Positions 1,720 through 50,233 of a DNA stretch of 64,000 nt are shown here, piece after piece. Source of the stretch: Daphnia carinata (Eukaryota). The stretch is from the NCBI RefSeq assembly GCF_022539665.2, contig NC_081332.1, positions 1,364,001-1,428,000 of the forward strand. Reading direction: 5' to 3'. The translations under genes and the position numbers were made by a program. Position 1 is the stretch's first letter; each line of letters begins with the position of its first letter. The notes below the pieces were generated by a model that searched no databases, was not told where the DNA came from, and saw only the letters and a program-made list of their open reading frames with translations.

Positions 1720-2075
1720 AACCCTTGACCACAAGTTCTATTATAAAAACAATTAGCAAGAAGAACTTTTAATTGCTTTTGTGCAGTTTTGATTAACATA
1801 AAATGTGATAGTCTCAACTTCTTCATTTCGCCTTGTTTTCAACGTTGGGAATGACACCTCTTGAAACGGAGGAAAATTCTAATTAGTTTTTATACTTGTA
1901 GAATAAAAATAAACTGTATGTTTGCTAATAGACATTCATTTATTCATTAAACCTCTGCCATTACAAGGACAAAAGTGAATTTCCCATATCCTGCGATCTT
2001 ACTGATTCGTTAAAAAGTTTTTACCAAAACTAGTCCGTTCATCGTGGTCGTATTTTGTTAGTGGGCTAAGAAAAT

Positions 2076-12012: not shown

Positions 12013-13936
12013 CTACGAGTTTTCTTGGGCATGCATCACATTTCTAAACGTATTCAACTTGATATTTATAAACGACATTATCAATGAATATAGAATTTCG
12101 CCGACAAAACACAAGAACGAAAGAATGCATCCAGAAATTAAGACGCTAAACGCTCCTGAGAAATTCTTTAAGGTGATTTTTGTTTTGTTTTCAAATATTT
12201 CGCTCTTTCGTTTTTTATCCGCTTTGTTTAGACAGAAGTTGGCGTTTTTGTTTTTCTGCTCTTCCTTTCGAGTCCAAAAATCGATCAGCCCGCCTTGATG
12301 CAGCTCCATGAATCTGCACCACGAATAATTGGTATTATGCCATGACTGCACATTTGAAAGGACTGAATATTAGTACCCCTTGGTGAAAGATTTGGTGTGG
12401 GGATTTTTCCAGGGCAGGGCCCATGCCGTGATTCCCGGAGACGGGTTGGATTTTCTAGCAATAGCCAAGTGGCATTTGTTGGTGGCTTTGAAATCTTCGT
12501 CGAGGACAGTCAAAGCACCAAACGCGGCCTTTTCGTACGTATTTACAAAAAACAGACAATTGAATTAATTCAACAGATAATTTCATCTACCTGGATGTAG
12601 GCGTATCGTTCGTATTTCACCAGGTTGACGCAATGTTCCTTTTTCGTGCAACGCGATTTCGGATTTGACTTTAGCCTGTCGCCGAGTTGCTTGTAAGGTC
12701 CATCTTTGGCCGTCTAGATAAAGAATTTAACGAACCGTAGGATAGATCTACTATGTTTTAATTTACAGAAAGAACGGTGTCTAAGGCTCTCCCCTTATCA
12801 ATGGCAAAAGGAACGTGCGGTTTATCAGCAAGATCCCGAAGGGAAACGACTAATAGTTCTGCATTCGATTTCAGAATGTGAGAAATCAAGACGCTGTTGT
12901 AGGCGCAAACGAGTACGAAAGTGCCCAAGCACCAACAGCCCAAAACAAATAAAACCGCATTTCGTGATGTTGCGGAAAATCTGCCGCCTTCGTATACAGC
13001 AAAACGCGTGTGTTATCATTTGGTTAAAATCGTAAATTAATTAGCTTACCTTGGTTCAAAAGGATCTGCAATATGATGATAATTGTTTGGCATGTGGTTA
13101 CGAGGGATGAAGGTTTTGCTTCTCGTTTCCGATCCAGCATAGATGAAGCTATCGGTCGAGTAGAAAAATGAAATACGAGCGCCGTAATCGGAATGAAGGA
13201 AATCAGTGCGATCCAGACCTATGGTAACCAAGAAGTAAAATTTTATGAACTGAAATTTCATCACTAATCAATTAGGTGTGTAATAGTTACCGGAAGTTGG
13301 AAGGGTTCGGTGATGGCTGCGATGTTGGCTGTTGATTCCGGCATTGGTATTACAACATCGATTGTCGTGTACGCATAACCTTCCGCAAAATCCATTAATC
13401 CTAAACGGCTAGTTGCCATTAGGATGGTTCCAACAATCACGTCACATCGCTGCAAAACTTCAGCGTTAATTTCGAGCTACTAAACACTGCATCATTTATT
13501 TGGTGAGTCAACGTACCCCGTTTCTCATGTAATAAGCCATTCCTGGTGAACCGTCACTTTGTTTCTCTAAGAAGGTGTCGTTCACTTGTAGAATCGAATA
13601 CCTTCGTCGTTTACGTATAATACTTGTAACGATAAAGAAATGTTGAGAAATCATTAAAGCAACTTACGTGAACTTAAAACGTTGAGATAATGCAGCGAGA
13701 GTGTTAGCTCCTACACCGTGTAACTTGAGTATGTGACCGGAGGCGTTTCTCATTACATACAAGTGAACAGCCGTGTGCTTTCGGACCCAAGAAAAATATA
13801 AAAGAATTCTAATTTTCAAATCTTTTTAGTTTACCTGTGCACCTACAAACAAGTGTTTTCCTTGAAGCGGATTGTATTCGCTTGACACGATTCCTACCAG
13901 AGCCAAGAAGAACGAAGACCAGTGAAATCCCTTCAT
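12013..13936 (-). CDS. Divergent ionotropic receptor
   Basis: MKGFHWSSFFLALVGIVSS signal; RCDVIVG...MDFAEGY; WCLGTFVLVCAYNSVLISH; MELHQGGLIDFW; ITLKNFSGAF terminal TM. Exons are spliced. Confidence 0.9.
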
Positions 13937-15892
13937 GGCTGGAGAAGAACAACGCGTTCTAAAATTGGAACTCAACTGTTGCGTCAAGTGTGGTGGAGGA
14001 ATGGATTTCAACAGATTGGAAGAGAACCATTCTTTTTATCCAAGCCAACGAACACGAGAGGGTATAATTCTATCGCCGCGACATCTAAAGATCCTGTCGA
14101 AACATCACATTAAAAATCCACAACATTTTTATTCCATATATCTATTTTGTTGTAAGCAACGATAATCCTAGGTTTTGGTAAGTTCGGTTCATACGTTGTC
14201 AAGGAAACGCTGTCATTTAGAATTAGAAAAATCACAAGTTGGAAATCATGGATGGTAAAAATTTCAGATCTAGGAAAAGAAATAATTCAACATCTGTCAC
14301 GGGATGTAGCTCCATATAAAACGAAAGATTGGGAATTTTCTTTAAGTTAACATAAAGCTTACCACGAAAAATATCATTCATCATTTCATTGCCGTCGAAA
14401 AGATGTCAATTTTAATATTGTATGATACGAATGAAACTACATTGTAACTTCCCAACTACGGAGTGTACACTTATGTACCTCGTGAACCACAAGAACAGAA
14501 TGCAGCTAAAAATATGTGACTTGTCGACAGCTTGTAAGTTCTAAGAATGAATAAAGGTAAAAACCTAGGTATTGATTAAAACTGCCATGCCCTACACAAG
14601 AAAATGTTAGGCAGCCATTTTACATGTCGATTTTTGTTCAGTAACCTGTAGAAGCTGCCATTTCCTATGTGGCTCTTAGTGGAAAACAAATATGAAATTC
14701 TTCGAAAATTTCTAACTGATTAATGATATAGGGCAAAAAAATTTATGTAAATGTGGTGACATATTTGTTTTTCTATAACGATAGTGATAAGCAATACTTC
14801 GATATATTGATGTTTTAGCATTATGTATAGTTGTTTATCTTCCCATTCCTTGCTTGCCATGTGCATTATCTTTTCCAGCCTCTTACATTTTTCTCATTTT
14901 TGCTTAGATTAAAAAAACAAAAACAAGAAAAAGTCTTCCGAAGTCTTGACAATCTACCATGATAAAGGAAAAGGTCAGTAAAGTACTCGGTTGTCCTTTA
15001 GTGTAATTGGCGATGTTGTAATCGAATCATTCTAAACTGAGCCCGCCAAAAAGTGCAGACATTCACGAATGAAACAGGCCACAAAGAAATGACATAACCA
15101 TTAATGGAGACGTTCGTCAAATAAAGGTATGTTGTTTTTTCATTGCGTGCTATATTATGCTACGTTAATTGCTGTCTGTTTTATTAGTTGATAGAAGTTC
15201 CTAACGAGAGCCTGAATCGAACTTTATTGAACTCTGGAAACTAGTGACGACCTGTGTAACTGCCATTGGAATTTTTCTGGTGAAATTCTTCCCTACCCTG
15301 CGAAAATGAGGTGTTTTGCGTCGTAAAACGTGTTCAGTCTTTTGATTACGACAAACATTTTGATCGTCCTCTGCAGATTGTTATGTAGCCTTTCTGGATT
15401 AATTTCTTCATTAATATCACTAGTTGTAAGTAGTCGTTTGACTTCAGTTCCACTCATGGAAAGCAAAAGATTGCATTGCATGCTCAGAATTTGTTTTGCC
15501 CTTACAGTGATTCCCAAAGTATGTATCATTGACAGTGTTTTCCTCTGTCATTTTTTTAATTAGCAGGTGCATCAGATTGCAAAAAATTGGAGGCAATTGA
15601 TGTTAAGAAGTAAACATGCCCACATAATATGCATTTGGGACACATGCAGTAAAATGCAAACATCTCCTAAACAAACTGGTAAATATCCATTTCTTGTTAG
15701 AATTCACGTCATAAGAAGTTTAATCAATTTTCGGAAGCTTCCAATGCCGCCGTAATTCCATGCATTTATTAAGTGCAGTTCTGTTTTTCCCATTAAGGAC
15801 AAGTCTGGAAAACTGCAGTAAACTCAAATAGTCTATTTTTCCATGGCCACAAAAAGGTTGGAAGGAATAGCTTAGTCTTCCTCTCTACTCGT

Positions 15893-17911
15893 TCAAGTCC
15901 TTAGAACCTTAGGTAAAGATTTTGGAGTGTTCAATCGAAAATTTATCAACACAAGAGATAAATGTTCGCCGGCAAAACAAAGGAAAGACACGATACTGCC
16001 AAAGATTAAGACGTAAAACGCTCCCGAGAAATTCTTCAATGAAATTTTCGTTCGGTTATCAAATAATTTGCCTCGTTGCTTTTCCTTAGCCTCTTTGAGA
16101 CAAAAATTGCCGTTTTGATTTTTTTCCTGTTCACGTCGAGTCCAAAAATCAATCAATCCGGCTTGATGCAGCTCCATGAATCTGCGCCAAACAGGGAAAA
16201 AATTACCAGAAGTAAAATTTTAAAAATTTTAGCAGTACCCCTTAACAAAGATTTTGGTATTGGGACTCTTTTTGGGCAGGACCCATGCCAAAGATCCCGG
16301 AGTTGGATCTGTTCTTCTAGCCAGGGCGAGATTGCATTTATTTGTAGCCTTAAAATCTTGATTGATCATCATCAGAGCGCCAAACATACCCTTTAAAGCA
16401 TCAAAACAAGGAAAAAAGCAGCTAAAGTAAATGTTTCGACCTGAAGGAAATTTCAGCCATAAAGCGTTGATCGTTTGATGTTTTTTTCTTTACCTGAATA
16501 TAGGTGTACTTTTCAGATTTCACCAGTTCGATGCAGTCACGATTTGTCGCACAGCGAGACTTTGGATCTGAACGTAACTTATCGCCCAGTTGTTTGTAGA
16601 TTCCATATTTTGCTGACTAAATTAATATATATTTTTTTCTTTTAGAATGACCCAGGCCTACATGTAAGCATTGATCCAATTACCGATAGGACTATATCAA
16701 TGCCCTTCCCTTCATCGACCACAAGACGAACGTTCGGTTTCAGGGCAACGTCCGTGATTGATTCGACCAGCGGTTCTGCATTTGAGCCCAAGATGTAAGC
16801 AACTAAGACACTGTTGTATGCGCTACTTAGCACGAATGTGCCCAAACACCAAGAACCCAGAACAAAACAAACAGCTAATCTTGTTATTTGCGGCACTTTG
16901 CCTCCTGAGTGAAAAGGAATTTTTACATTTTTTATTGGAATCGGATTAAATTGAATATTCTTTACCTTGGCCTAGGAGAATTCCATAAACTTCGAAAATT
17001 ATTTGTCCTGCTGTTGAACGTTTTGGACGATGCATTGCATTTTGCTTCCATCCCAAGCCAACAGAGCGGATGGTTCCAGGCATCGGAATAATTGAAAGGT
17101 AAGTGACAATCGCCGTGATAGGAATCAGTAATAGCAATGCAACCCAGACCTGTTTATTTTCGTAATAATGTACAACTGTTGTTTACAATCCATACCTTCA
17201 ATGTGCTTACCATTTTAGGAAGATATATAGTTAACAATTAACTTACTGAAATCTGGAAGGGTTTGATGATTGCTGCCGCATTGCTTGTTGATTCAGGCAT
17301 TGGCATCAGGACAACGGCTGCCGTGTAGTAATATCCTTCAGCGAAATCCATCGACATTATACGGCTAGTTGTCATTAATATGGTTCCCATCATTAAATCA
17401 CATCGCTGGAAGGTAATCAAAGCAGATTGGTAATGTCATAGCATTATTTGAGCACACAGAAAAAAGGAATGTAACGGACTCCCTTTTCCATGTAATAAGC
17501 AAATCCCGGTAACGAATCACTTTGCTTTTCTATGGAGTTGTCGTTCACCTGCAAGTACGAATACCTATATAACAAAACAATCAAAAAGGTATAAAAAATT
17601 TTAAAAAGCATCGTTCAAAGTTGATTTCAGGTGACTTACGTGAAATTAAAACGTTTTGATAGTACAGCCAGAGTTATAGCTGCCACTCCGTCTACCCTAA
17701 CTATTTGACCGGTGCTGTTTCTTATCACAGTAGCGTGAACTAACGCCACCTGGGAGTAAATAAAGGTGACGATAGTTTAAAAAATCATTAAAGAAGCAAA
17801 CCTAAAATCCCATTGTACCAGTGGCCCGACATTCAGGTGTTTTCCATTCAATGAATTGCAATCGCTTGATACAAGTTCAATTAAGAACAACGTCAAGTGG
17901 AGTGTTTTCAT
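15893..17911 (-). CDS. Divergent ionotropic receptor, tandem paralog of 12013-13936
   Basis: MKTLHLTLFLIELVSS signal; RCDLMMG...MDFAEGY; WCLGTFVLSSAYNSVLVAY; MELHQAGLIDFW; ISLKNFSGAF. Confidence 0.9.
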
Positions 17912-20834: not shown

Positions 20835-20907
20835 ACCTCTGTGGCCTAATGGATAAGGCACCGGCCTCCTAAGCCGGGGATTGCGGGTTCGAGTCCCGCC
20901 AGAGGTA
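20835..20907 (+). tRNA. tRNA-Arg (anticodon CCT)
   Basis: 73-nt cloverleaf: acceptor ACCTCTG/CAGAGGT, D arm TGGCCTAATGGATAAGGC, anticodon stem CCGGC-CTCCTAA-GCCGG, T loop GGTTCGAGTCC. A T-run follows downstream. Confidence 0.96.
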
Positions 20908-21272
20908 CAGGTAATGAACGATAAGTGGGAATGTCGTATACATTGCCTTTTTCAAAGAAGAGATATGCAAGAGATGATTTAGAAAATTCTAACACTGTCA
21001 TGAAATACGGTTTGACTCCTATTCAAGCCAGTGAAACAATCTGATTTCACTGCTTCGGTACACGAAATCCAGTTAGTGCAATGCAACTTTAACATGCATC
21101 TGTTTATTCGTGAAAATAGGTGGGTTTATAGCAGAGTAAATTCGGGCCTGCAGTAAAACGAACTATTACATTATATGGCATTGCAACGAGCAAACATGTC
21201 TGGTTGAAAGTTTGATTTCCATCTTACAGGGTTGTCAATGCAATTTATGATTCATGATTCACAAACATGCAC

Positions 21273-21746
21273 TAGGGCTCGGCCCCGATTGTCTTTGATC
21301 GGGGCAAACCGCGGTTTTTCATTTAAAAATCGTCAAACCGTGGGTTCGGTTTGGTCTTTGACTGCGGTTCGGTTTGCAGTTGGGCAAAACTGGTTTGAAC
21401 CACCATTAAAATTTTTTTTTAAATTTTACTAAAATTCCAAATCAAATAATTATCACTAATTGTTGTGAGCGTAATGACGATCAGTAACTTGTTGTAAATC
21501 AAATTTCCGATCAGACTTGTAGGCATCGCGATAGAAATTGGTCGATGCTTCCGCCATCTAGCGACAAAATCTGTTACTGATGTTATTGTCCTATGCAAAC
21601 CATAAAACCGCGGTACAAACCGTCAAACCGCGGTTCAATCGGTTTGAAAAAACGGCAAATCGAACCGCACCGGTTTGTCTCTTTAAAAAAAAAAAACCGC
21701 GCGGGTCGGCCAAAATCGTGCCCCATCGTCGCGGGGCCGAGCCCTA
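21273..21746. mobile_element. Non-autonomous hAT-superfamily MITE (474 bp)
   Basis: Perfect 15-bp TIRs TAGGGCTCGGCCCCG / CGGGGCCGAGCCCTA; identical 8-bp TSD ACATGCAC at 21265-21272 and 21747-21754; many subterminal AAACCG/CGGTTT motifs. Confidence 0.92.
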
Positions 21747-22912
21747 ACATGCACCTGCATGCACAAACAATGAAATACTTTTTTTCATTTACGTCACTAT
21801 TCTTCCGTTTGGCAACGAAGCGAGCGATCCGGCCTGGCCCTCTGCTGGTAATTTCGCACCTGTTTCTTGTGTTCCTCCCTGTTCAGAATTTTAAAGCATG
21901 GTGCCGGCAGCCAAGGCTTCCGGGCGAAAGCTATAGCTGGAGATGGTTGCTGTCGTGATACTGCGGATTGTCGTTCCTACGGATCCGTAAGTTTTATTTC
22001 TATTCATATTAGTTTATCGAGCTTGCCACAGCTGCTTGAAAATAATATTAAGTTCATGCGATGGAGTGATTCATTTTCTTAATTTACAGTAGTGACCAAT
22101 TGTTTCTGATACGTAAACTTTCATGGTGGAGTCAGTCATATATTAGCCATGCATGATTTTGACATCAATTGATTGATGGCTGTAAATTTATTGAATGCTT
22201 GATTGTTACTAAGGATGTCTTGATTTTATTATCAGCTAGGATATGGGAAAGCTCTATCCTGAGTATCTTTTAACAAGTGTGGGCCGAAGTACCTTGACCT
22301 GTGTTTAGAATGGCTGTGTTATGGTGTGAAATCTGGTAACTTGTGACAAATCAATTACTGTATGTGCAATTGTTTAGGAAAGGCAATGGCTGCTGCATGT
22401 CCCGTTAAAGGTGTGTTAAGATGTCTGACTCAGTTTACGTTTCTTGGTTACATGAATGGTCTGTGTCTAAGCTGATTTTTATGATTTAAATCATTTTCAC
22501 GACCATGGGTTTTGGTTCTTAACACATTTTTTCTTTACAGCTGTAACTGGCAATTCCGTGTACATGTGGGTCCTTTTGATTCTTCATTCATTGTGCGCTT
22601 TGATTGGTGGGAGCCTTTTTTAAAAATGATAGTATGATTCTAATGACTGTGGTTTGTTTCTTAGGTACTTTACTTTAATAGCTGCTCCCCACCACTCAAC
22701 CTGTTTTCCATATTACAGGTGTTACATGTGACCGTGCAAGATAAGTTGAATTTGCTTTGGCTATTGGATTGTAAGGGGGACTTGAGCTAGTCATGGCGAA
22801 CACTTATGCTGCGTACGGATATGGCTGCTCTGCAGTTTCTTTGAAATAGGTGGTCTCATTTTAGCGACGCCATGTGATTTTAGGTTAGTATTCTTTTGTT
22901 GATGTGTTCTTG

Positions 22913-23296
22913 CCCCTGTGATGAGTTTCCGCTCTGCTTTAATTGGCTTCCGGCAATCCCGTATCTGGGGGTTACAAACGGGGCACTTGTTGCTTGTTTT
23001 AGATACTCTCGGGAAGGTCTGAGATATGGCTTTGCTCTTGATGTAGAGCTGTACGCTCTAGCCGGGCGGCCTTTTCATGAAGGTGTAGGGGAATAGAAAG
23101 ATTTCGACTGGAGCGTTATTAGGCCCATGATGTTCGTTCCAACGGACTAGGCGTTGACTTCCACGTACGATTGGAACTGCTTCTATGGCTTGCTTTTTGA
23201 GTCTAATGTGCGGGTTGCGGGATGCTTTGGTTAACTGCAAAACTCAATTCAGACTAGTCTGTCGAAAGCCAAATTTACTGCTCTGCGTCTGAGGGG
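22913..23296 (+). other. Box C/D terminal kink-turn motif enclosing the RNase P RNA
   Basis: CCCC-T-GTGATGA (box C 22918-22924) ... T-CTGA (box D 23289-23292)-GGGG; 4-bp G-C closing stem and 3-nt bulge. Confidence 0.7.
22943..23272 (+). ncRNA. RPPH1: Nuclear RNase P RNA (RPR), intron-embedded
   Basis: All five conserved regions occur in order: CR-I GGGAAGGTCTGAG (23011-23023), CR-II AGAAA (23095), CR-III TGGAA (23172), CR-IV AGTCTAAT (23200), CR-V AACTCAATTCAGACT (23241-23255). Helices: P1 TTGGCTTCCGGCA/TGTCGAAAGCCAA, P3 GTATCTG/TAGATAC, P4 GTCTGA/TCAGAC. Confidence 0.93.
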
Positions 23297-26200
23297 ATTC
23301 GCATGTTTTAATGTTGGTTTGTGTTTAAGCTTAAGGGTATAGCTTAAACATTTCCTTTTCATTAGGATTTACACGTTTTGTGTGGCGAACAAGAGGAAAC
23401 CAACAAAAAAAAAACATCTCTCTTCTTGTGATCTGTTATTTCTTACCCCCCTCTAACACACAAGAGCAGCTCCACTAAAATAATAAAACAAAAATGTATA
23501 AGAAGAATGTCGAATTCTTTTGATTTTTACTGACACATTTTTTTCATTAGGATTTACACGGCTGGTTGTGGGTTCAATGGATGTTGGAGATTATCAATGA
23601 AATTGGTCTGTATTCATTGAGCATTGATGTTGTGAAGTCTGAGTGGCTGTGCATAATGTTACCATCTTGTTCTAGGTTACGTAGGATAGACAGATTGGGT
23701 GCCATTGCTTTGTGTAAATTGTGCCTCTACATCAATCAAGTAAGTTCATGATTATTTCTAGTTTTGGTTATACGACAATTTTCTAATGCTAGTTCTTTTT
23801 ATACAAAGCATGTTTCGCGTTTTCTCCTGTACGGCGTTTATGGCTACGACTAATTGGTGGAGTTAATATAATCCATGGTTTCGTCAAAATGCAAGCTGAC
23901 ATTTTAAACTTCTGATTGTTGCATTCTGGTTAGTCCCGTGGAATTAATGTTGCTTGTTAAGCGCAGATTTTTATTCCAAGAATTCGCTACTGGAGTTTTC
24001 TTCCTCGTGTGTGAACGGCGTTTGGCTCGGCCGTCGACGGTGCGTTGCTGCTCGTCTGTTGCTGCATTCTGTTGGGGGCTGCCTTTAGTCAGGTAGGCCA
24101 TCTGGAAGTGATGTGTGCAAGTTTTAAATGGATGGCAAAACTTACAAACCGTGGAGAAAGGGGATTGAAAGGGTAAGTGAAATATCCCTTTTATCTTTTC
24201 CTTCCTAACCATCTTTACATTGGTCCCATGGTGCTCTTTGATTTTACAGGTAGTGAGCCTTTTTTTCCTGAACGGTGGTTTGTTTCACAAGTTAACCGGC
24301 AGGAAAGGGTGGAAGTCTGATCCTTATTGATGAAGAAGAAGAGTTTAACAGACTGCTATCAGGAAATAAGTTTGTAGATAATATATTATCTGATTGATTA
24401 AAAAGGAAGAACTTTGATTTCAATTCCAACTCAACGGATATTACGAAACACTTCACTACAAAATGTTATTTATTTCTAAAATTTATGAAGAACTGTGCAA
24501 TTAACAAATCCAAGGCGTTTGACTGTTATATGGTTATTTTCCAATCGTCATCCCTTGGCTGGCCTTTGTTTAGTAACTTTAGTTCTTATTGCTTATCCAT
24601 TATTGTCTTCCACGAATTCAATAGCAGGTTCGTTAATTTTAGTGAAAATAGGTTTCAACATTTCAGTATTCTACTTAAATGGATATAGATTGCATCACTT
24701 ATTAAACAAGTAAATGACGTTAAAAATGCTTTTCGATGTCAGACTAAAACTATGTTAAACGAAGTAAATTAGGTTTTGGGGAGTTGAAATCAGACTATAA
24801 ATACAAAAATTTATTTGTTGTCATCAAACGGTAAAACAATAGAAAATTTATGTAAAAGAACAAATCGTTACACAGTGCAACGATTCATTGGCAAAGATCT
24901 ATTGTCGATGTTCCAATTAATGACGTCATTAGTTTTACAGGAAAATTTGTAACAATGTTGAAATAATGAACTGAAATTATCTTTGTATTCAACCATTTGA
25001 AAGATGAAACTATTGATCTGGATACTGTAATTTTTTGTATGTAGCATTATGTATGTTGAAATATTTTATCTAGAAGCAACTGATTCAGAAAAATCCATTA
25101 ACTCTAATCGTACATACCTTTCATTAACAAATTGTCATTAATAATTAAATTTTTGATACGTATTGTTCTTTAGTTAAGTAAAACATGTTTTTCAACGCTA
25201 TTTAATCTAAATAATTAATTTACCTAGAAACTTGGTGGTACGACATAATTTAATGTCATAGTCGAAGGTACGTCTGGCTAGTTTTTTCTGTGAGAGCGAG
25301 ACAAGTGTGTAGAGTGGAAAAATATGTTTTAATAATAGTACATGTGAACAATTTGTAACAAAAAGATTGAGTGTTTTGAGATCTTGAAAATTTAGAAAAA
25401 TTAATTTATCTTAAGCAAACGATAAGACGGCTATTGACATATTCACAAAGTCTGGCTTTACAAAGTCTAACTACGGCCGCCAGATGTCCTAAATCATTGT
25501 TATGAAAAGTTGTCAGAAGTGTGCTTGTGCTGTAGGTTTCCATTTAATAACAATGTAAACTTACGAGTGCCATCGTGTGAAGCCGATAAATTCTGATGGA
25601 TATAAAATAAAGGTGAGGATTTTGAAATATGCTCTTGGATTATTGTGTGTGTGGTATTGTTTTAAAGTGGTATATGAGTCGTATCTGAAAACTGAACTTT
25701 AAAAAGGCTAAATTGTAATAGTTAATGTTTGAAACTGCCCAGATCTTGGATACCGTGTAAAGAAAAACATAGTTCATTTTTTAATTTTTCGAAATTTTAA
25801 CTTCCGGTTTAAGATCCGGTTTGAAAATGCTTAATAACTCACTATCTGTTGGTCTGAACAAAAAATGACCGACATTTTCGTAATCCTCGTGAAATTTGGG
25901 GTCGAATCCATGTGTCAGTAGAAAATACCCGAAAATCGTCAAAAATCGCAAATTTCCCTGAACTATAGTTCAGGAAAAATCGCGATTTTGGCCAAATTGG
26001 ACTTTTCGCCAAAAACAGATCAAAATAGGTCAGACACACCTAAAATTTCATGAGGATCACGAAAATCGTATTCGTTTTGTTGTGGGCCCAGTATTTCTGG
26101 AGATATAGGCTACTTTCGGTCACTTCCGATAATTTTTTTTTTCAACTTTGCAAAAACTAAAAAATGAACATTAATATTCCAAACATTTTAAGCATGTTAA

Positions 26201-27511
26201 TCATTAGTGTAATGGTGTGGCGGCTTTTTTCGTGTTTTTTTACTAGTTTACTACTGGTTGATCGTGCAAGCTGCTTATCTAGATATGGTAAGCGCTATGT
26301 CCTATGTAAATTTTTTTTCCGATATCAACTTTGTCCGGCTTTTCATTGCTCGTAACAAACGAATATACTCGCTGGAAAGTTGCGTTCTGCGATTTTATGG
26401 GTATTATACATCTGTGATTCGTTTCGTTGTGTAATTAGTAGTTCAGAAGTTCTTCGTTACTTCCGATACACTTCGGAAATTTGCATATAAACAGTAAGGA
26501 ACCTTGAATCTAATCAATCACTGGGGGTATATTTAAAAATTGAGAATGCTTATCTCGGTTGCTTCGCATTAAAACCCGAAAGATTGAACACTACCGTCGT
26601 CTGTCATGTCCGCCATTAGCCATGTCACCATGCAAACATTTTTGCCCTGTTTTTTTTTTTAGTTTTCCCCCTGTTTTGTGCGTCTACATCAACGAGTAAG
26701 TAACGTACGATCATTACTTTTTATTCAGGCATTATTATTTTGCTTTATTGTTAGAATTAGGAAGATGGAAGCGTTTTATGTAAACCAGCAGTGATAAGTT
26801 GAACACAGATAGTAAGGAAGTCGATGCTCAGCTGTTGCCTTGGAAAATCAGCCGTATGATGTTTGTAGCGTAAAATATCTTTAAGCTCTTCTTCAGAGCA
26901 TAACAGAAAAATTGTTGGCAAATTGTTGAGTATTACTTGGCAGTGAGTCTCTTACATAGAATTCTGAGTAGAGGTTAAAGGATTGGCTTAACTTTTTCAA
27001 TAACGAGCACACTAGCTGAGCTATCAGCATTTAACTTATCAGCCTTTTTCATCTGTATCGTAATAATATAAACTAAATGGTTTATTAACCTTTTTCCAGT
27101 TTGTATTCAATATCGTGACTTCTGTTGTACTAAATATTTGTTTGTTTGAACTTCTTGAATCTACGTTCAACTAGCAAAGCTTTATGACAACTGTTTGTGA
27201 CAAACTCTTTTTGAAGAAGATTGAACATATGGAATGTTTGATAACCATTTAGCAAAGGATTTCTTTTGAATGCAAAACTATTTTACAGAAGTAACATTCC
27301 CTGTCTTCAGTCTGTTCATATTATGGTCCCAGTAATCCTGGGAAACTAAACGAGCTAGTTTTCGTTATTTAACTTGTATCATTTTTAAAGTCCCGGTAAA
27401 CCATAAACATACTTAGATCTCTTTTGTTAAATTCCTATGTTGTTCTTTTATCTAATTCCTTTACATCTGGTACATTTACATAGGGCCAATAAAAAGAAAA
27501 TCCTGATAGTC

Positions 27512-28000
27512 GCCTCATCGCCATCTCCATCGCCGCCTCCATCGCCTTCTCCTTCCCCGCCTCCATCGCCGTCTCCTTCGCCGCCTCCATCGCCGTCTCC
27601 TTCGCTGCCTCCATCGCCGTCTCCTTCGCTGCCTCCATCGCCGTCTCCTTCGCCGCCTCCATCACCGTCTCCTTCGCCGCCTCCATCGCCGTCTCCTTCG
27701 CCGTCTCCTTCGCCGTCTCCTTCGCCGTCTCCATTGCCGTCTCCATTGCCGTCTCCATTGCCGTCTCCATCGCCGTCTCCATCGCCATCTCCATCTCCAT
27801 CTCCATCTCCATCTCCATCTCCATCTCCATCTCCATCTCCATCTCCATCTCCATCTCCATCTCCATCTCCATCTCCATCTCCATCTCCATCTCCATCTCC
27901 ATCTCCATCTCCATCTCCATCTCCATCTCCATCTCCATCGCCGTCATCTCATCGCCGTCATCTCATCGCCGTCATCTCATCGCCGTCATCTCATCGCCAT
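27512..28000. repeat. Compound hexamer-based micro/minisatellite, (CCATCT)n core
   Basis: 24-bp units, then 12-bp units, then pure CCATCT (~27785-27936), then 15-bp CATCGCCGTCATCT-type units. Confidence 0.95.
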
Positions 28001-28411
28001 CTACGGGATTCGCCTTGGTATATTGTTTTGTTTTGTTTTGCATTCTAGTGTATAAGTTAACCTGTTGGCTGCCACGCCGTTTGCTCCTATTTTTTTTGGT
28101 AGTTGTAGGGACTTGGGCGCTGTTCTCCTCATGGCCATGGGGGGAACAGTCGCCATTGCGCCTAATGGCTTTATGCCATTTTTTACGGATTGCCATATTT
28201 TTATGGCAATCCGTTTTACATGAAAAAAAAAAAAAAAATGGCGGAAAAAAAAAAAAAATCGCACTTTTTTCTATTTTTTCTACCCGTAGCCATCTATCAG
28301 TCGGTTTCGTTATTACAGGCATGTAAGCAATTTGAGTTAATTGTATCCCATTAGCAGTTAATTGAGTAGCGTGGCTGGAGAACAACGCGTGGCTGGAGGA
28401 ACAATTGAAAA

Positions 28412-29125
28412 ATGGATAAGATAATAAAACAAAAAAATGGTAATTATAAACATTATTATATTGGTTTTCAATTATTAATTATTGTTTATTAGATCAAATT
28501 ATGAAGCTGCAGGCCCAGTTATTGGAACAACACAAAATATTAGATAACAAAGCTAAGGATCGTAGGCCTAACACGTAATGATTCTATTTATTTGCTTTTA
28601 TTCATTCGTGTTTTGTAGCTCAATTGAGTCTTCAAGCTCAGCTAGGGGAAAAGAACAAATTGGAACGGAACAGTTTCCAAACAGTGAAGGAGGTTTTTCA
28701 AAACTCATCTCTAACTGAACGTGAGGATGAGTTGGCATTAGGCGAACACAGCCAGGTACCTAAAGTTTTCAAATAAGAATTCAAAATAAGTATAGAATTT
28801 TAAAAAAACAATTATTTATTGCTTAGTTATTCAGTCCACCACATGACAGTGTGTTAAATTTAAATTCTGTTAGTGCTGCACTAAAAGAATCGTTAGTAAT
28901 AAGCTCATGCAGTGAAGGAACTGAACAATTGTGGGAACGTATTTGGGCCGAAAATGGGTGTGGTACAGAAACCCAGAAATGGCACAAGTTCAACATGAAA
29001 CATGGATTAGGTACTTTTCGGTTTTTTGTCTATCGAAAAAGTATTTTTAATGCTATTATTTTGCATTCACAGATTTTAACGGGGGATCAACTCAAGTCTG
29101 GAAGTGTTACAGGATGGAAGAGTGA
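28412..29125 (+). CDS. Putative small spliced coiled-coil protein gene in the left palindrome arm
   Basis: Five GT-AG exons join in frame: MDKIIKQKNDQIMKLQAQLLEQHKILDNKAKDPQLSLQAQLGEKNKLERNSF...VWKCYRMEE*. No family recognised. Confidence 0.45.
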
Positions 29126-30460
29126 GCCTACAGACGAAAAAACACTGAGAGTGCATTACCGTAAGGTGTGAGGTGAATTAATAGAGTAATGCAAATTGCC
29201 TAATGAGAAGTACCATCTTGTGTTAATGAATCCAGTACAACAGCAATCCTTTATAGTTCTGTCACAGCTAGAAGCCTCAAATAATTCTGCTTCTCTGTCT
29301 AAAGAACAACTTGTCCTTTACGTTCAGAGTGTTGGGGAAACTGGGTACTTAAATGGCCCTAAAGATGTTTTAATTTTGCTGCTATTGCAGAGATGAACAT
29401 CGTACATGGACTCTTTAGGTATGAAAGGATTTTTCTTCAAATAATTTTGAATTTATGACGAAGAATTTCTCCTCCTTTTCGCCAACCAGGTCTTATCTAC
29501 CAAAAAAAATTTTATCCAATAGGAAAGGATTTTCATGTACTGGGAACACAACTATCAACAATGCAACATTCTACAGGTGCTAGTTTATCATTCAAGAGCC
29601 TTATACAATGAAGTTAATCTGCAATTTGTATGTCCTTTCCCAAGCTTCCACCAGAAGTTGAATCTATGAGTCATGTAAGTTCCATGATCAACAATTGATG
29701 TGTTTAACGGTGTTGTTTTTCTTTTCTCAATATAGGTTAATAGTAAAATTGGATCTGAAAGATTCTTGGTTGGGGCAAGACACTGAATAAATTGTATTGA
29801 TTGGATGGATGACATGACATTGCTATACTTAATTCGGATTCCCGAGACGGTATTTGATATTAAAAAAATTGAAGTGCATATCTGGGCTCCCTTCTTTTCT
29901 GAAGCCCCGTTTCCCCTTGACTCATAATAAGCCCGTAGGGGGTCATGCCCCTACTGTACGGTATATATAAAAACAACATATACCGAGGTTTGGAGGGCTC
30001 TGGCCGGAAAGGGGACGTGGGGTGCCACTTCGTCCGATGATGTGTTCACGGAGGGTGACGTGGCTGCCCACAAATCCGAACTAAAGGTTAATCGCTCCTG
30101 TAAAAATGTTCCAAATCTTCAGCTCTTCTTCCGGCTTCTCTTAGCCAATCACCGGGTAATCTCCCCGGTGGGTCAACAAGGCAGTGTCTCCCCCTGCCTG
30201 GGTTGACGGCAACTTTTGAAAGGGCTATTGTGCCTTTTTAAAGTTGCAAAAATAATTGTAATGTGCAGAGAATTGTCAATAAAATTTTTTTTATAAAATA
30301 TTTTTTGCAAAATTCGTTTCTTTCATTGTCTGTGTTAGCTTTGTTCACACACTGCATTTATCAAATATTTTATTTGGCTTTGCTTTATTTGGTTTTTGTC
30401 ACATTAGATGGTAAGGTGACGGGTTTTGGTTTATCGTTTATCTGTAAGCATTCTATTATT

Positions 30461-30874: not shown

Positions 30875-32524
30875 ACGAGTAAAACAAAATACAAAATTAC
30901 TTCATAAAATATCCAGATTATTCCTTAAATCTAAGTTGAAGAATTCAAGGAGTGTAATAAATAATACTTACAGATAAACGATAAACCAATGCAAGCAAGC
31001 TGAATATAAAAAGTGTAAAGTGTGAACACAGCGAATACAGACAATGAAAGAAACGAATTTTGCAAAAAATATTTTATAAAAAAAATTTTATTGACAATTC
31101 TCTGCGCATTACAATTATTTTTGCAACTTTAAAAAGGCACAATAGCCCTTTCAAAAGTTGCCGTCAACCCAGGCAGGGGGAGACACTGCCTTGTTGACCC
31201 ACCGGGGAGATTACCCGGTGATTGGCTAAGAGAAGCCGGAAGAAGAGCCGAAGATATGGAACATTTTTACAGGAGCGATTAACCTTTAGTTCGGATTTGT
31301 GGGCAGCCACGTCACCCTCCGTGAACACATCATCGGACGAAGCGGCACCCCACGTCCCCTTTCCGGCCAGAGCCCTCCAAACCTCGGTATATGTTATTTT
31401 TATATATACCGTACAGTAGGGGCATGACCCCCTACGGGCTTATTACGAGTCAAGGGGAAACGGGGCTTCAGAAAAGAAGGGAGCCCAGATATGCACTTCA
31501 ATTTTTTTAATATCAAATACCGTCTCGGGAATCCGAATTAAGTATAGCAATGTCATGTCATCCATCCAATCAATACAATTTATTCAGTGTCATGCCCCAA
31601 CCAAGATTTTTTTCAGATCCAATGTTACTATTAACCTACACTGAGAAAAGAAAAACAACACCATTAAGCATCTCAATTGTTGCTCATGTGACTTACATGA
31701 CTCATAGATTCAACTTCTGGCAGAAGCTCGGGAAAGGCCATACAAATTGTAGATGAAAATCATTGTATAAGGCTCTTGAAGGATAAAATAACACCCCTAG
31801 AATGTTGCATTGTTGATAGTTGTGTTCCCAGTAAGCTGAAAATCCTTTCCTATTGGATAAATTTTTTTTTTGTAGATTAGACATGGTTTGCAAAAAGGAG
31901 GAGAAAAGCTTCATCATAAATTCAAAAATTTTTCCAGAAAATTCCTTTCATACCTAAAGAGTCCATATATGATGTTCATCGCTGCAATGCCAGTGAAGTG
32001 AAACATCTTTAGGGCCATTTAAGTACCCAGCTTCACCAACACTCTGAGTGTAAAGGACAAGTTGCTCTTTAGCAAGAGAAGCAGAATTATTTGAGGCTTC
32101 TAGCTATAACAGAACTATAAAGGATTGCTGTTACACAGGATTCATTCACACAAGATGGTACTTCTCATTAGACAATTTGCATACTCTATTACTTTACCTC
32201 ATACCTTAATGGTAATGCACTTTCAGTGTTTTTCAACTGTAAGCTCACTCTTCCATCCTGTAACACTTCTAGACTTGACTTGATCCCCCACTAGAATTCT
32301 GTGAATGCAAAATAATAGCATTAAAAATACTTTTTCGATAGACAAAAAACCGAAAAGTACCTAATCCATGTTTCATGTTGAACTTGTGCCATTTCTGGGT
32401 TTCCGTACCACACCCATTTTCAGCCTAAATACGGTCACACAATTGTTCAATTCCTTCGCTGCATGGACTTATTACTAACAATTCTTTTAGTGCAGCACTA
32501 ACAGAATTTAACTTTAACACACTG

Positions 32525-32963
32525 TCAGGTGGTAGACTGAATAACTAAGCAATAAATAATTGTTTGTTAAAATTCTATACTTATTTTGAATTCTTATTTG
32601 AAAAGTTTAGGTACCTGACTGTTCGCCTAATGCCAATTCATCCTCATGTTCAGTTAGGGATGAGTTTGGAAAAACCTCCTTCACTGTTTGGAAACTGTTC
32701 CATTCCAATTTGTTCTTTTCCCCTAGCTGAGCTTGTAGACTCAAAATTTGAGCTACAAAACACAAATGAATAAAAGCAAATAAATAGAATCATTATGTAT
32801 AAGCCCTTACCATCCTTAGCTTTGCTGTTATCTAATATTTTGTGTTGTTCCAATAATTGGGCCTGCAGCTTCATAATTTGATCTAATAAACAATAATTAA
32901 TAATTGAAAACCAATATAATAATGTTTATACTTACCATCCTTTTGTTGTATTATCTTATCCAT
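32525..32963 (-). pseudogene. Second copy of the coiled-coil gene (right arm), shorter reading frame
   Basis: Same splice sites, two in-frame 3-nt insertions, and a 2-nt difference at the end of exon 3 giving ...VIQSTT*. Which copy carries the ancestral frame is unresolved. Confidence 0.4.
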
Positions 32964-33257
32964 TTTTCAATTGTTCCTCCAGCCACGCGTTATTCTCTCC
33001 ATCCACGCTACTGAACTAACTGCGAATGGCATCCAATGGACTGAAATTGCCTACGCCAGTAATAACGAGTCTGAGCGGTAGATGGCTACGTGTCGGAAAA
33101 AAAGAAAAAAGTGTGATTTTTTTTTTTTGGCGAAATTTTTTTTTTTTTTTTTGTGTAAAACGGATTGCCATATAAAAACGTATTGCCATAATAGAATAGC
33201 TCGCTCCCGACATTAAAGTCTGGTGAACCTTCAGCGCCATCTAGTGGAAATAAAGTA

Positions 33258-37495: not shown

Positions 37496-40400
37496 CTAAC
37501 TCGACAGGGCGACAGCTAGGTGGACGGAAACTAAAGCGACGATAATGATGCGGGAAATGAACGACGAGGCGTTGATAGATCCGGCACTGCCATTTTTACT
37601 CCGGTGACAGGGTTCCGTAATGTGACGCGTTTTGGACATTAGCCAGTAAAAAGCTCGCTGCGAAAACAAAACAAATAAAAAAAAATACATAAAAAGATAA
37701 TGAGAAGACTCATCAGTTAGTTGCGACCTATTTTTGATAGTTTAAAAACAAAAACAAATGATAAACACAAAAATAGATAGGGTATGCTCACCATCCGATT
37801 TTGGCGTTTCAACTCTTCGCCTACTTTGATCCTCACCATGGCGTGATAGTGATTCAACCAATGCAGCTATAAATGACATTAGATTAATGGCTGTTTCGCT
37901 GTTCCATCGTAAAGAAATACCTGTTTAAATGTCATTAGCTCGGGCACAATTAAGTACGGATCGAAAGGCACCAACGATACCACCTCAAAGCCCAAGAAAC
38001 GTCCGTCTCGTTGGTGCTAAAAATAAAAGGCCAGCGTTCTCAGACGCTCAGTATTCGATGTCATGTGATGCACAATAATTAGAAATACCTCAAACGTTTT
38101 ATTGATCACCCGCAGAATAGATTCCAAACGGATGCCAAATTCATTTTCTTGGTAAAATCCAGGCTCTGTGCAAAAATTCGCATTTTTCAAGCAAAGAGCC
38201 AACACGTGTTATTACGTTTGTATACTACGTACCATCAGAGAAGAAGTAGTTTTCCTCGAAATGATGGCCAACTTTGCCGTAAATACGAATTTGAATTGGA
38301 CCTTGAAACGAGCCAGATAAGTGAGATGATAAAGCACATTTCGAAAGTCGTTATAAGGGAAATGTTACTTTCGTGTACGTTGAGAAATGAACCAATGCCA
38401 TGCCCAGTCCCATGTAGGTAGTCCAGTCCGGAGCTGTACAAGTGTTGACGAGCTATCACATCAATCCTGGTGTCATCAATCGAGTCGGGGAAAACCAGTG
38501 TGGCCAGGTCGATAGCTCCCATTAAAACCCGAGTGTAAATCTCTTTCTGACGCTGCGTCGCCCGACCAAAATGGAATGTACGCGTCACATCCGTCGTCCC
38601 GTCTAGACCCGTCCAAAGTCACAATCATCAATCATTTTGAAAAAGAGAAAGGCCAAAAAAAAAAAAAAAAAAAACGGAACGACGTACCGAGATATTGGCC
38701 ACCAGAGTCGATGATCAAAAACGAAGAATTGTCAATGATTCGATTGGTTTCCATTGACGGCCTGTAATGGATAACTGCGCCATTGGGTCCGAAGGCAGCG
38801 ATCGTACTGAAACTTGGTCCTCGGTTCAGATCCTGCTGTTGGCGATACTCGTCCAAGGTGTGAACGACTTTCAACTCGTCCCATTGCACTTTGCCTTCGT
38901 GTACCTTAAAAAGGGCAACAAAACGCGATGCGATCCATCAACTTCATCAACAAAACGAGGCTGATATCGATTGAAAAACAAAAAATGAGAAATTCGAACC
39001 TGTTCTTGGAGAAGAGAGAGAAAATCACAGAGGGCCACTGCATCTTTCATATGGGCGTTTTTCATTCCCTCCACTTCGATGGCATTTTTTGTCGCCTTCA
39101 ATAAAATCAATGGCGAAGGAGATGTCCGTCTCTTGTCTGCCGGAATCTGTATCAGCAAGCGAGCCAAAAATAGTCAAAAAAAAAAAAACAGCCACACCAA
39201 AACAAAATAGGGGAACGTACCGTTTCGTAAATGGCAAAACTGACTCCTCCACTATAGGCGTATTTCGATGGAAGTAGAATGGCGTTGGCTTTGGCTGTTA
39301 AACGGGGCAGGTCGCTGAACACATTTTCATATCGCCTTATTCTTTATCGCGTCCACAGACATCCAATCGAAAAACAAAGTAACAATCGTACAAAAATAAG
39401 AAAGATTAATGGAATAGAAGTAGGGAGAGCGAGTCGTTCCCGTAAATGGGGCAGGTGATTAGATACAGGCGCACCACCTCCCCACATCATAATTTTTCAC
39501 TGTCTGTCATTGAAACAAACCGACAGTGTTTCCACTTCCTCGTCCCTTCTATATAAAACTAACGCCGTCACGACCATCACAACAAGACAAATCCTTCACC
39601 ATAAGGGCGTGGCAATCGGCCTACCGCGGAATTTCTTCTTTTGTTTTTGCATAAATCAATAAGCATATCCTTTTCGTACGGTCAGGTAAAAATAAACACA
39701 CGAACAAAAGACGCACATTTAAATTTTTCGAAAAATCCCCAAAAATAAATAAATCAACAAAAAAGTGAAGCCAAATGGATATTGTTTGTCGTTGGTGGGT
39801 GCCGCCTGTTAGCCTCGTAAAAATAAAAAGGAATCCCGATGTTGTTCTTTTTGATGATACGGGGATACTTTCACAGTCATTAGTGGTTCCATCTTGACGT
39901 ACGTGATGAATGATGGTACCTTATATGTCATTCCTTCCCCATCGAAACATCTTCTGACCTCCTCTTTCTTTCACGAGGCCGTAAATAGCCGGCGTGTGTC
40001 GGGCGCCCATATCAGGCAGGCACACACATCTCTCCAAGACACACCCTTATTATTATTCCATCTACATTTGTGGGCGCTGAATGACGAAGGGCAAGCGACG
40101 CGAGATCAAATAAAAAAAAAAAAAGACTTTTTTTTCGCACTTACTCAACGCAAAGGTCATCGGGCTGATCCCGGAGGCAGCGATCACTCTCCAGATGCTC
40201 CCTGATGGGCGCCACTTTTAATTTCAACGGCTCGACGAAGAGGACGACCTGCTGGAGCGAGAGGTAAACGTAGCTCTTGACCAGCGGGCTGTAAGGCACG
40301 TCGGCGCCGCGTAGATTCAAGAGCCAAGCGATCTCGTCGAGGGCCGTCACGACAATCGCGTCCAAGCCGAGTTCCTTTAACTCGTTGCGCACCGCGCCCA

Positions 40401-43189
40401 CCTTCTCCTGCCACGACTGCCCTGTCAAAGTTAGAGAAAAATAAATAATAACAATAGCTTTGTCTCACTTGATGACGGATGAATGCATCTGCAACAATAC
40501 CCGCGTAGGCAATGTCGTGTATAAAAGCCGGACGAGGGTTGGGTTTAGGTCTTCCATTGTCCTCATTCCAAATGGAATCGACTAGATTGGCTTGAATCGC
40601 GTCCAATTTGATTCCACTTTCGGCTATTAAAAAAAAAAAAAAAATTAAACGTTATTTCATCATTTTTAATGTATGAAAAAGCATCAATAATTAAATACCG
40701 AGTTCGGAACGCCATTCGAGCCACTGATCGGCACTGACCAATTTCGGATCAGCTCCGATGCGGTCGCCAGAAGACAGGACGGACTTGAGCCATTCACTGA
40801 TGCTGGGCACTTGATCTTGGCCGGATTTCATGACGATCCATTGGCAGTCGAGTTGTTGATCTGCCTGCAGGTGATAGCGTCCGTCTACCCAAAGAGCGGC
40901 CAAGTGTTGCGTCACGACCGCCGTTCCAGCGCTTCCCGTGAAACCCGTCACGTACTGGCGTCTCCTGTCGCTCGGGGAAACCATTTCAGTCTGCGAATAG
41001 ACAACAAACGCGAGTACGTCAATCAGATGGCACGCATCATAAAGATTTCGAGTCAATGTCAAGATCACGTCAAATTTTGACGTAATGAAACGCGCCCTTT
41101 TGCATTTTGTTTTTTTCTTGGGAAATTCTTTGGCACCGACATGTTCCCACATTTCATTCTGTACTCCGACCACGAACAATGTTAAGATGTGTCCAAGAAA
41201 TGAACCCCCCCCCCCTTTCTATTGCGCATCACATTGCAGAGTGATAAGGAAATAAAGGATTTCTTAAGATGACATGGATAAAAAGCTAAAGCTGCTGCTT
41301 TAAAACTCTCCCTTTGGGGGGTGTTAAAAAGGAACTTTCGTTAACAAATGACACGGCAGACATTATCATTCTAACAACAGCGTGATTACCCTCAGGCCAA
41401 TTTTCTTTCAAAAAGAGTACTTGGGTGTGTCACTACGCATGTGACTGATATTGCTTTCCATAGCCTGCAGTTTGATTTTCGAGACACTCGGTTGACAAAG
41501 CCGTTAACAAACGCCATTAAGTGAAGGGGGGAAAGCCATAAAAATGCGTTGGTTCTTCGAACATAAAGATGGCCTTAATGGATCGGTATGTGTAAATCTG
41601 GTTGGCCGTTTGGCTGTTACCTGGTGTTCGTCGTCACTTGTGATGATGTACGCCTTGAGCGGTGCTCCTCTGACTAATTTGACGGCAGACATGGCGACGC
41701 GCAGCTGTTGCAGCCTCAGCGTCGTATTGACGCGGTTGATCGGCTGCTCTTGTCGATGAACGCCGTCCAGGCAGCCCAGACGATCGGGCGCGGTGCGGCT
41801 GCTAACAACCTCGGCCATCCAAACGCCACTCGTCACTATGCCCATTAAACAACAAAAGGTAAATAATAAAAACTCAAACGAGATCATATCAAATTCTATG
41901 GGAGGCTAACCGTTTGCCCATTCGTTTTGAGCATCTTAAAATAGGCAAAGGAGTGCTGTACTACCATACTAGAGATGCGGGGAGAATGGGGGGCGTCGCT
42001 CGTCAGTGACACGCTGACGAGTGCGTTACATCAACATTAGCGATGGCGGCAGACGCAAGGGGCAAAAACAAAAAGGATTTTTTGTTTTTTTTTCTTTCAA
42101 AAATATTTCTTGTTCCGCCTTTTCAATGCGTGTTGTCCCCACCCCGCTTGTGTGGTCGTTGTCGGCATCCGGCGACGCTGGATACTTACGTTCTACCGCC
42201 ATCGTGTAACAAGGTGTACAAATGCGGTCGGATAAGCCAAAAAATGTAATACATTTTCTTTTTGTTTCTTTCTTTCTTGTTAAAAAAAAGAAAAAAAAAA
42301 GAAACGTAAAAAAAAAAAAAAAAAAAAAAAAATGTCTTGGTACCTTTAAAACAAATCACGAGGAATTCTTAAAAGACAGCAGGGGGGGGGGGAGTGGTTT
42401 GGCAAGCTGAATGACTCATCACGTATATAAAGGTGCACTCCTTTTTTTTTTTATGTGTACGTTGGCTAACGAGTTTTCTTATAGACACCATATGGGAATG
42501 CGCGTTATTACACTATTCCAAGGCCGTTTCGCCAAGGCAAAAATGTTGTGGCTTTTAATGGAACGAATGGAAGTTCTTGTGATGGATGCAAAGAAAATGG
42601 CAAGGGCATGTACGGCATACGCCACCGACTGTTTAAAAACACAAAACACTGTTTCCATCTGGTAACTTGGTTAACAAAAATTGTTTTTGCCCGGCAGTTG
42701 AATGAAAACATAAAGTAAATTCAATGCGATTTCAATTGGCAATGTCTTGCGTTGCGCGATCTGATTATTTTTAAAACTCCTTGCATTTTTTTTTAACACG
42801 CTTTTCTTGGGGAAATAAATTGGAGGGCTACTGTTCCGGATGGATTTCTACGAAAAGGATTCCGGCGATTTTGTCGACTCGACATTTTCCTTCGAGCAAA
42901 AGAAATAAAAAGCGACGCGGGTGCCAAAAATAGAAATAGAATTAAAATTTGGTTTCTTCCAAACGGCGGTAGATGAACGATCGGAAATTGCGCGCCATTG
43001 TTTTGATTAGTTACAACAAAAACAAAAACATCCGCCCGTTTCCGTTTACACATTTTTTTTTTTCGATCGTGACGGCAAAAAAAAAAAAAAAAACAGGCGG
43101 GTGACTACGGGAAAACACGGAAGAAAAACCCGTTCCAGGTTGAACTACTTACCGTACAAGACGATGAGCAATGATTGCAGACAAATCAT
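37496..43189 (-). CDS. Xaa-Pro aminopeptidase (aminopeptidase P, M24B), secreted and probably GPI-anchored; copy A
   Basis: [64 protein letters not shown] motifs; N-terminal signal; hydrophobic C-terminal tail (IIIVALVSVHLAVALSS*). Confidence 0.93.
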
Positions 43190-49693: not shown

Positions 49694-49713
49694 AAGGAAA
49701 AGGAGATGCAAAT

Positions 49714-50174: not shown

Positions 50175-50233
<59 letters not shown>

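Follow-up and report, generated by a model that had tools for sequence, protein, structure and literature searches.

Can a ribozyme reach its mature form under the end-protection of a small nucleolar RNA (snoRNA)? The question is raised by a locus of Daphnia carinata, within a stretch of 64,000 nt (assembly GCF_022539665.2, contig NC_081332.1, positions 1,364,001 to 1,428,000 of the forward strand; hereafter the window, whose own numbering is used throughout). At this locus, an RNase P RNA (RPR) lies in a predicted intron between a box C and a box D, which a short stem closes into a kink-turn of the C/D type. Judging from this one locus in one genome, it appears an even call that the frame is a clamp which halts exonuclease trimming and so yields an RPR of 382–385 nt capped by a small nucleolar ribonucleoprotein (snoRNP).

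What is the RNA in the intron?

Two features define the RNA itself:

22943..23272, + strand: nuclear RNase P RNA, complete (conserved regions CR-I to CR-V, P4 pseudoknot), from Rfam RF00009 and the P1 inverted repeat
23194..23198, + strand: internal T5 run, a would-be terminator for RNA polymerase III (Pol III), from the sequence

Expression and activity aside, this RNA is an RNase P RNA by every testable feature. The earlier note on this DNA had read a complete RPR at these positions, and the Rfam search now bears it out with a full-length match to RF00009 (22946–23269, model positions 1–301 of 301; E 1.6e-32 and 115.7 bits, where 28 is the gathering score). The two P1 arms, TTGGCTT at 22943–49 and AAGCCAA at 23266–72, form an inverted repeat that pushes the ends of the RPR beyond this match. 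In the alignment to RF00009, the conserved regions read GGGAAGGUCUGAGA, AGAAA, UUGGAA, GAGUCUAAUG and ACUCAAUUCAGACU; CR-I to CR-V and the P4 pseudoknot are intact, and the single non-standard pair marked is located in the last hairpin. Besides the RPR, the 64-kb window holds one Rfam match, a tRNA-Arg at 20835.

The T5 run was also found where it had been described. No TATA box occurs within 70 nt 5′ of P1, and the first T4 on the 3′ side of the RPR comes 34 nt beyond P1. Insect and crustacean RPRs are described as being without Pol III signals and placed within introns of genes transcribed by RNA polymerase II (Pol II; Manivannan 2015, PMC4287351), and expression of the Drosophila virilis RPR by Pol III required mutation of an internal polyT (PMC6797745).

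Two peculiarities of the RPR body can be recorded here. An extra S-domain hairpin (near 23026–23053) is an insertion relative to the Rfam model, at a place where the D. virilis RPR is also longer. A box C-like word, ATGATGT (23127–23133), occupies the internal loop of P12, and no partner was identified for it. Other RPRs carry a kink-turn for Rpp38/L7Ae in P12.

Is the frame around it a C/D kink-turn?

The elements of the frame, all read on the same strand as the RPR, are the following:

22918..22924, + strand: box C, GTGATGA (a perfect RUGAUGA), from the sequence
23289..23292, + strand: box D, CTGA, from the sequence; its last base is 55 nt ahead of the candidate branch A and 73 nt ahead of the acceptor
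22913..22916, + strand: CCCC, 5′ strand of the kink-turn terminal stem, pairing with 23293–96
23293..23296, + strand: GGGG, 3′ strand of the kink-turn terminal stem, pairing with 22913–16
22925..22942, + strand: 5′ linker of 18 nt, with GCTCTGC, from the sequence
23273..23288, + strand: 3′ linker of 16 nt, in the D-box guide position, from the sequence
22901..22907, + strand: 5′ arm of a weak, G.U-rich external stem, with its partner at 23301–23307

Direct reading agreed base for base with every coordinate of the earlier note, and reproduced the exact kink-turn register that it had drawn on the CCCC/GGGG stem. Indeed, a 3-nt bulge (TGT, i.e. UGU, at 22917–19, overlapping the start of box C) separates the terminal stem from the tandem G.A pairs, G22920.A23292 and A22921.G23291, which are followed by a U.U pair, a G-C pair and A22924-U23288. 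It is by these two features, the 3-nt bulge and the tandem G.A pairs, that the standard kink-turn is defined (PMC5689011), and the frame of the RPR matches this definition. The frame is also placed near-symmetrically about P1, with 18 nt on the side of box C and 16 nt on the side of box D. In the whole-intron ensemble, the terminal stem forms with a probability of 0.89 and P1 with 0.39–0.56; when the flanks are folded without the RPR body, the pairs of the external stem reach 0.53–0.76. The two linkers are weakly paired.

The rate at which such a frame arises fortuitously was estimated on random pairs of 50-nt flank zones. Under strict rules, box C had to be perfect, with box D present and a Watson–Crick stem of 4 bp in register, while relaxed rules allowed one mismatch in box C as well as G.U pairs. 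Strict frames were obtained in four of 400,000 flank pairs from the window and in eight of 400,000 pairs generated at the composition of the host strand. The strict RPR frame is very unlikely to be due to chance (about 1e-5). Relaxed frames were more frequent (103/400,000 window pairs and 432/400,000 pairs of local composition), as were pairs with both boxes when the stem was ignored (549/400,000 and 1,258/400,000, respectively). With the spacing left free (30–450 nt), two of the 28 RTGATGA sites in the window give a strict frame, one of them being that of the RPR.

Does the intron place it like a snoRNA?

The splice signals and the host gene are predicted as follows:

22884..23365, + strand: predicted intron of 482 nt carrying the RPR unit, from donor, polypyrimidine tract and TAG acceptor
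22884..22891, + strand: 5′ splice donor TAG/GTTAGTAT, with GTTAGT at 22884–22889, from U1 complementarity
23343..23365, + strand: acceptor CATTAG/G with its pyrimidine tract, preceded by an imperfect candidate branch point, CTTAAAC (A23347), from the sequence
23535..23560, + strand: duplicate acceptor region, 26/28 identical to 23348–23375, with a potential second 3′ splice site at 23550
21790..24420 (approximate ends), + strand: predicted host gene for Pol II, with several exons and probably non-coding, from strand skew and donor/acceptor pairs; its pyrimidine-rich start element, TTCTTCC at 21800–21806, is one that we take to be TCT-like

Among the 3,598 GT dinucleotides of the + strand, the donor at 22884 ranks first for complementarity to U1 (9.5 of 11). 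The acceptor, TTCATTAG, ends at 23365 and is the next strong one 3′ of the RPR. Such strong signals favour a real intron around the RPR, the intron itself being a prediction. The donor, the acceptor and a distance of about 70 nt from box D to the acceptor had been put forward in the earlier note; both sites are confirmed, and the distance was measured at 73 nt. Its description of the intron was incomplete in one respect, as it missed the duplicate acceptor 185 nt further downstream, at 23550.

Human intronic C/D snoRNAs preferentially lie some 50 nt 5′ of the branch point, and the protein Aquarius couples their assembly to splicing (PMC5519232, PMC10557570). Given the predicted branch point (55 nt from the end of box D) and use of the first acceptor, the RPR unit has the spacing of a splicing-dependent C/D snoRNA. 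As the next strong acceptor lies 60–90 nt away at merely 324 of the 2,400 positions of the host region, this spacing gives modest independent support for a snoRNA-like placement.

The host gene is marked by a T- and G-rich strand skew over about 21800–24400, where regular donor/acceptor pairs delimit a succession of short exons and introns, all predicted. It is probably non-coding and would resemble a snoRNA host. None of the 15 reading frames in or beside the host region matched Pfam (the scan also took in four frames from other parts of the window). The longest open reading frame of the simplest splice model, of 96 codons, was equalled in 39 of 1,000 shuffles, and its first-exon part had no homologue among 12 candidates. 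Frames of 178–187 codons could be built when weak splice sites were chosen freely; we treated these as a probable artefact of that choice and regard a protein-coding host as unlikely.

Several observations on the intron and its host stand apart from this argument. An acceptor-like cryptic site lies within the RPR at 23002. The candidate branch point is enclosed in a perfect 10-bp hairpin (23322–23350), which could make splicing at 23365 slower. The approximately 160 bp between the acceptor copies (23348–23560) is A-rich, whereas the host strand is T-rich; in reverse complement, it resembles an acceptor–exon–donor series, as if a fragment of another gene had been inserted backwards. Further 3′ in the host, an imperfect C/D-like frame (24108–24320; GTGATGT ... 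CTGA with a 3-bp stem) begins 15 nt past a donor, but crosses a predicted acceptor at 24249.

How could the RNA be released?

The route known in Drosophila, as described by Palsule 2019 (PMC6797745), consists of splicing and debranching of the host intron, followed by trimming by Xrn2 and the exosome, the ends of the RPR being protected by Pop1, Pop4, Rpp20 and Rpp25. The introns concerned have weak splice sites, and ideal sites reduce the yield of RPR (PMC6797745).

In Daphnia, a related but distinct route may be proposed. Pol II would transcribe the host gene, as suggested by the lack of a TATA box, by the internal T5 run and by what is known of crustacean RPRs. The 482-nt intron, if its splice signals are used, would be spliced out and then debranched. 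Box D would at that stage lie about 55 nt 5′ of the branch point, where Aquarius/IBP160 links assembly of C/D snoRNPs to splicing in human cells. P1 and the CCCC/GGGG stem would juxtapose boxes C and D, Snu13/15.5K would fold the kink-turn, and Nop56, Nop58 and fibrillarin would follow, a sequence of events established for C/D RNAs and here presumed by extension. Core snoRNP proteins block trimming of the Xrn2/exosome type (PMC10557570), and C/D RNAs end 4–5 nt 5′ of box C and 2 or 5 nt 3′ of box D (bioRxiv 10.64898/2026.08.03.742641). Xrn2 and the exosome could hence be expected to trim up to 4–5 nt 5′ of box C and 2–5 nt 3′ of box D, with ends at 22913–14 and 23294–97, after which Pop1 and other Rpps would bind the RPR core. 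The clamp would lengthen the open end of P1, probably sparing catalysis, and would take over the end-protection role held in Drosophila by Pop1/Pop4/Rpp20/Rpp25. As to the origin of the unit, an RPR copy probably entered an intronic C/D snoRNA or replaced its body.

Release as a C/D-capped hybrid of about 384 nt had already been suggested in the earlier note, and this size agrees with the 382–385 nt computed here. The sequence favours a real clamp in a real intron (strict frame at about 1e-5, top-ranking donor, spacing), while the capped hybrid as a product is something that we infer. If the clamp does provide end-protection, the RPR could tolerate a fast-splicing intron. Drosophila RPR introns have weak sites and the RPR there seems to depend on slow splicing, whereas no donor in the 64 kb outranks the Daphnia one; this would fit a different route of release.

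A more far-reaching version, which we advance tentatively and consider possible rather than probable, is that the working RNase P of Daphnia is a snoRNP–ribozyme chimera. Snu13, Nop56/58 and fibrillarin, clamped on the P1 end, would take the place of the Rpps in end-protection and direct the enzyme to the nucleolus; the capture of snoRNA ends would help RPR genes to survive jumps between introns.

The 3′ linker offers a weak lead towards an extension of this chimera. Its positions 23276–23288 are complementary to the RPR's own S-domain hairpin (23041–23053) at 12 of 13 positions; the anchored run was equalled by 19 of 1,000 shuffles and the duplex energy by 66 of 1,000 (p about 0.02–0.07). The D+5 rule would point at A23045, a suggestive coincidence at most, and we regard it as highly improbable that the linker guides 2′-O-methylation of that residue.

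Has anything similar been described?

Known RNAs resemble the Daphnia unit in part. Insect and crustacean intronic RPRs share with it the lack of Pol III signals, the sense-embedded position in a Pol II intron and the predicted release through splicing, debranching, Xrn2 and the exosome. However, they end at P1 through Pop1/Pop4/Rpp20/Rpp25, and their hosts are mostly protein-coding with weak splice sites, whereas the RPR studied here has a perfect C/D frame around P1, a very strong donor and a host that looks non-coding.

Intronic C/D snoRNAs and the orphan ktRNAs/klRNAs have in common with the unit an RUGAUGA/CUGA kink-turn with a stem, a position about 50 nt from the branch point and a probable non-coding host (PMC5519232, PMC10557570, bioRxiv 10.64898/2026.08.03.742641). 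Intronic C/D snoRNAs also have C′/D′ boxes and antisense guides, whereas the body of the Daphnia unit is a 330-nt ribozyme. In sno-lncRNAs and SPA lncRNAs (lncRNA, long non-coding RNA), snoRNPs at the ends protect an RNA that stems from an intron and serves a different function in its interior (PMC7038934, PMC10557570). These carry entire snoRNAs, one per end or a single one at the 5′ end, unlike the single box C, single box D and essential catalytic cargo in Daphnia; since it has one box of each kind rather than a complete snoRNA per end, the unit is not a sno-lncRNA as described in PMC7038934.

In terms of logic, the nearest parallels are the telomerase RNA of trypanosomes and an engineered snorbozyme. 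The former binds NOP58 via a C/D box (PMC10061497; Gupta 2013 cited there), and is thus the RNA subunit of an RNP enzyme with a C/D module recruiting NOP58/NOP56/fibrillarin. It is, however, a template RNA and not a ribozyme, its C/D element is a domain rather than a clamp from a cis-spliced intron, and it belongs to another lineage (PMC10061497). The snorbozyme, a U3 snoRNA joined to a hammerhead, demonstrates that a ribozyme in a C/D frame works in vivo (PMC8002509); it is synthetic, carries a small ribozyme and belongs to yeast work, whereas the Daphnia unit would be a natural, multi-protein ribozyme.

A C/D-framed RPR was not found in titles and abstracts that link RNase P RNA to introns, to kink-turns, to snoRNAs and their proteins Snu13 and fibrillarin, or to crustaceans including Daphnia, a coverage that leaves subscription journals largely outside. 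The available text of the two papers on intronic RPRs (PMC4287351, PMC6797745) draws the parallel with snoRNAs and makes no mention there of C/D boxes on the RPR; ‘box C’ appears once in the former, in the references, and three times in the latter.

Searches of other sequence collections, all poor in animal DNA, have no bearing on conservation. The 19-nt CR-I word retrieved two metagenomic loci, both in bacterial coding DNA and without Rfam match. With gapped RPR patterns, viral contigs yielded five loci in one search (none with an Rfam match) and 20 in another, and prokaryotic genomes yielded one. None of all 28 pattern loci contained both CR-I and CR-V, and the one weak nhmmer match was in bacterial DNA. 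A blastn search against plasmids and phages returned no match.

What weighs against a C/D clamp?

A number of results count against the clamp and should be considered together. Regarding the fold, the inner G-C and A-U pairs of the kink-turn have a probability of only 0.03, although the folding model does not score protein-folded kink-turns; C/D kink-turns are reported to remain unfolded before L7Ae/15.5K binding (PMC5689011). The folding energy of the whole unit is no better than that of shuffles (41/100, z-score −0.15) and is uninformative.

Regarding snoRNA identity, no canonical pair of C′/D′ boxes exists outside the RPR fold: the only similar words in the unit, the ATGATGT of P12 (23127) and the CTGA of P4 (23019), are both parts of that fold, and the 18-nt 5′ linker is too short to leave room for a guide and a canonical D′ box. 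Even with E values as high as 10 allowed, Rfam placed no snoRNA family over the unit. Lacking both C′/D′ boxes and a known family, the unit was not filed as a guide snoRNA. Nor did Rfam reveal another snoRNA in the host gene, either at gathering score or convincingly below it; four C/D family matches within 21400–25200 (E 1.8–7.8) were rejected, all being far under the gathering score.

Regarding the intron, use of the duplicate acceptor at 23550 would abolish the snoRNA-like spacing, and this site has a canonical CTGAC branch point (at 23530) that is better than that of 23365. In D. virilis, a by-eye reading of the RPR intron (PMC6797745 supplement) found no RTGATGA in the 102-nt 5′ flank and no CTGA in the 246-nt 3′ flank; the C/D frame is thus not general among insect and crustacean RPR introns. 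The mature D. virilis RPR is given in the same supplement as 353 nt, bounded by P1, which implies that protection by Rpps alone is enough in a relative.

Ten RPR-like genes, one of them reported as expressed, are described for D. pulex (PMC4287351), so that the copy studied here need not be the working one. Finally, the window contains another perfect, wide-spaced frame (13264–12871, − strand), and the RPR frame was noticed by inspection: when a scan is large, some RNA will by chance be flanked by a relaxed frame (1 in 1,000 to 4,000). The frame at 13264–12871 was itself set aside as probably fortuitous, since it spans an apparent exon–intron–exon in a duplicated coding-like region and has no Rfam match.

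Which alternatives survive?

The unit could be a relic or a spare copy: an RPR recently inserted in an intronic C/D snoRNA, whose ends have been kept without selection, or a capped paralogue not used as enzyme. RPR genes have moved repeatedly in pancrustaceans, with ten copies in D. pulex (PMC4287351), and the locus holds another recent-looking insertion, between the duplicated acceptors. A 7-nt direct repeat, GCTCTGC, flanks the RPR at 22931 and 23280 in the manner of a target-site duplication, but the same word is present at 22827 and at three further places on the + strand. Moreover, the RPR is full-length with intact helices, and the boxes and stem are perfect. Removal of the RPR and one repeat would leave less than 20 nt between the boxes, insufficient for a guide snoRNA, so that the linkers must have been reshaped if the unit is a relic. 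On balance, we find this account unlikely, though not negligible.

Alternatively, the clamp could be real but transient, protecting or routing a precursor of 382–385 nt that is later trimmed to an RPR of about 330 nt, bounded by P1, once the Rpps have bound. All the sequence evidence for the clamp (frame, chance figures, donor, spacing) applies equally to such a cap; P1 is the end of mature Drosophila RPRs and an extended precursor gives rise to the yeast RPR (both PMC6797745), and the weakly paired linkers of 16–18 nt could be cut. Yet C/D core proteins normally block exonucleases permanently (PMC10557570), and removal would require an added endonuclease or displacement step, for which no signal was seen. 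We likewise hold a temporary cap to be unlikely.

That an ordinary intron-encoded crustacean RPR, maturing as in Drosophila under Rpp protection, merely has flanks that happen to spell boxes C and D is rather improbable, given the strict-frame counts, the near-symmetric placement about P1 and the snoRNA-type distance to the acceptor; it retains some weight because the frame was found by inspection within a very large scan, as well as from an RPR pathway that works without C/D proteins (PMC6797745), from a G/T-rich strand that raises the number of TGA-containing words (hence the 1,258 local pairs with both boxes and no stem) and from the second perfect frame of the window, very many windows having been scanned.

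What else does the window contain?

The tRNA-Arg(CCT) gene (20835–20908) is on the + strand, as is the host gene, about 900 bp upstream of it. An inverted repeat pair (28198–30350 and 31020–33176; 2.1 kb, 92% identical), possibly a foldback element or a transposon remnant, is adjoined by a long simple-repeat tract at 27430–28050. Two tandem gene duplications were observed: a pair of Creatinase_N/aminopeptidase P-like genes at 38–41 kb and 45–48 kb (38366–47911), and a coding-like pair at 12–14 kb and 16–18 kb (12097–17729). A CIDE-N/DFF45-like gene (+ strand) stands beside UTP11 (− strand) at 49235–50653; the UTP11 exon shares 94% identity with a protein cluster of D. magna, 87% with D. pulex and no more than 65% with insects.

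What would a clamped RPR mean?

In the work cited here, two routes to a nuclear RPR are established, namely Pol III transcription and release from an intron under the protection of its own proteins. If the C/D clamp is real, the form described in Daphnia would represent a third route for a ribozyme that ranks among the most ancient. Nature would then have its own version of the snorbozyme, and the telomerase RNAs that borrow snoRNA modules would have a parallel. A clamp would also explain how an RPR that jumps into an efficiently spliced intron may escape decay, a point left open by the work on Drosophila.

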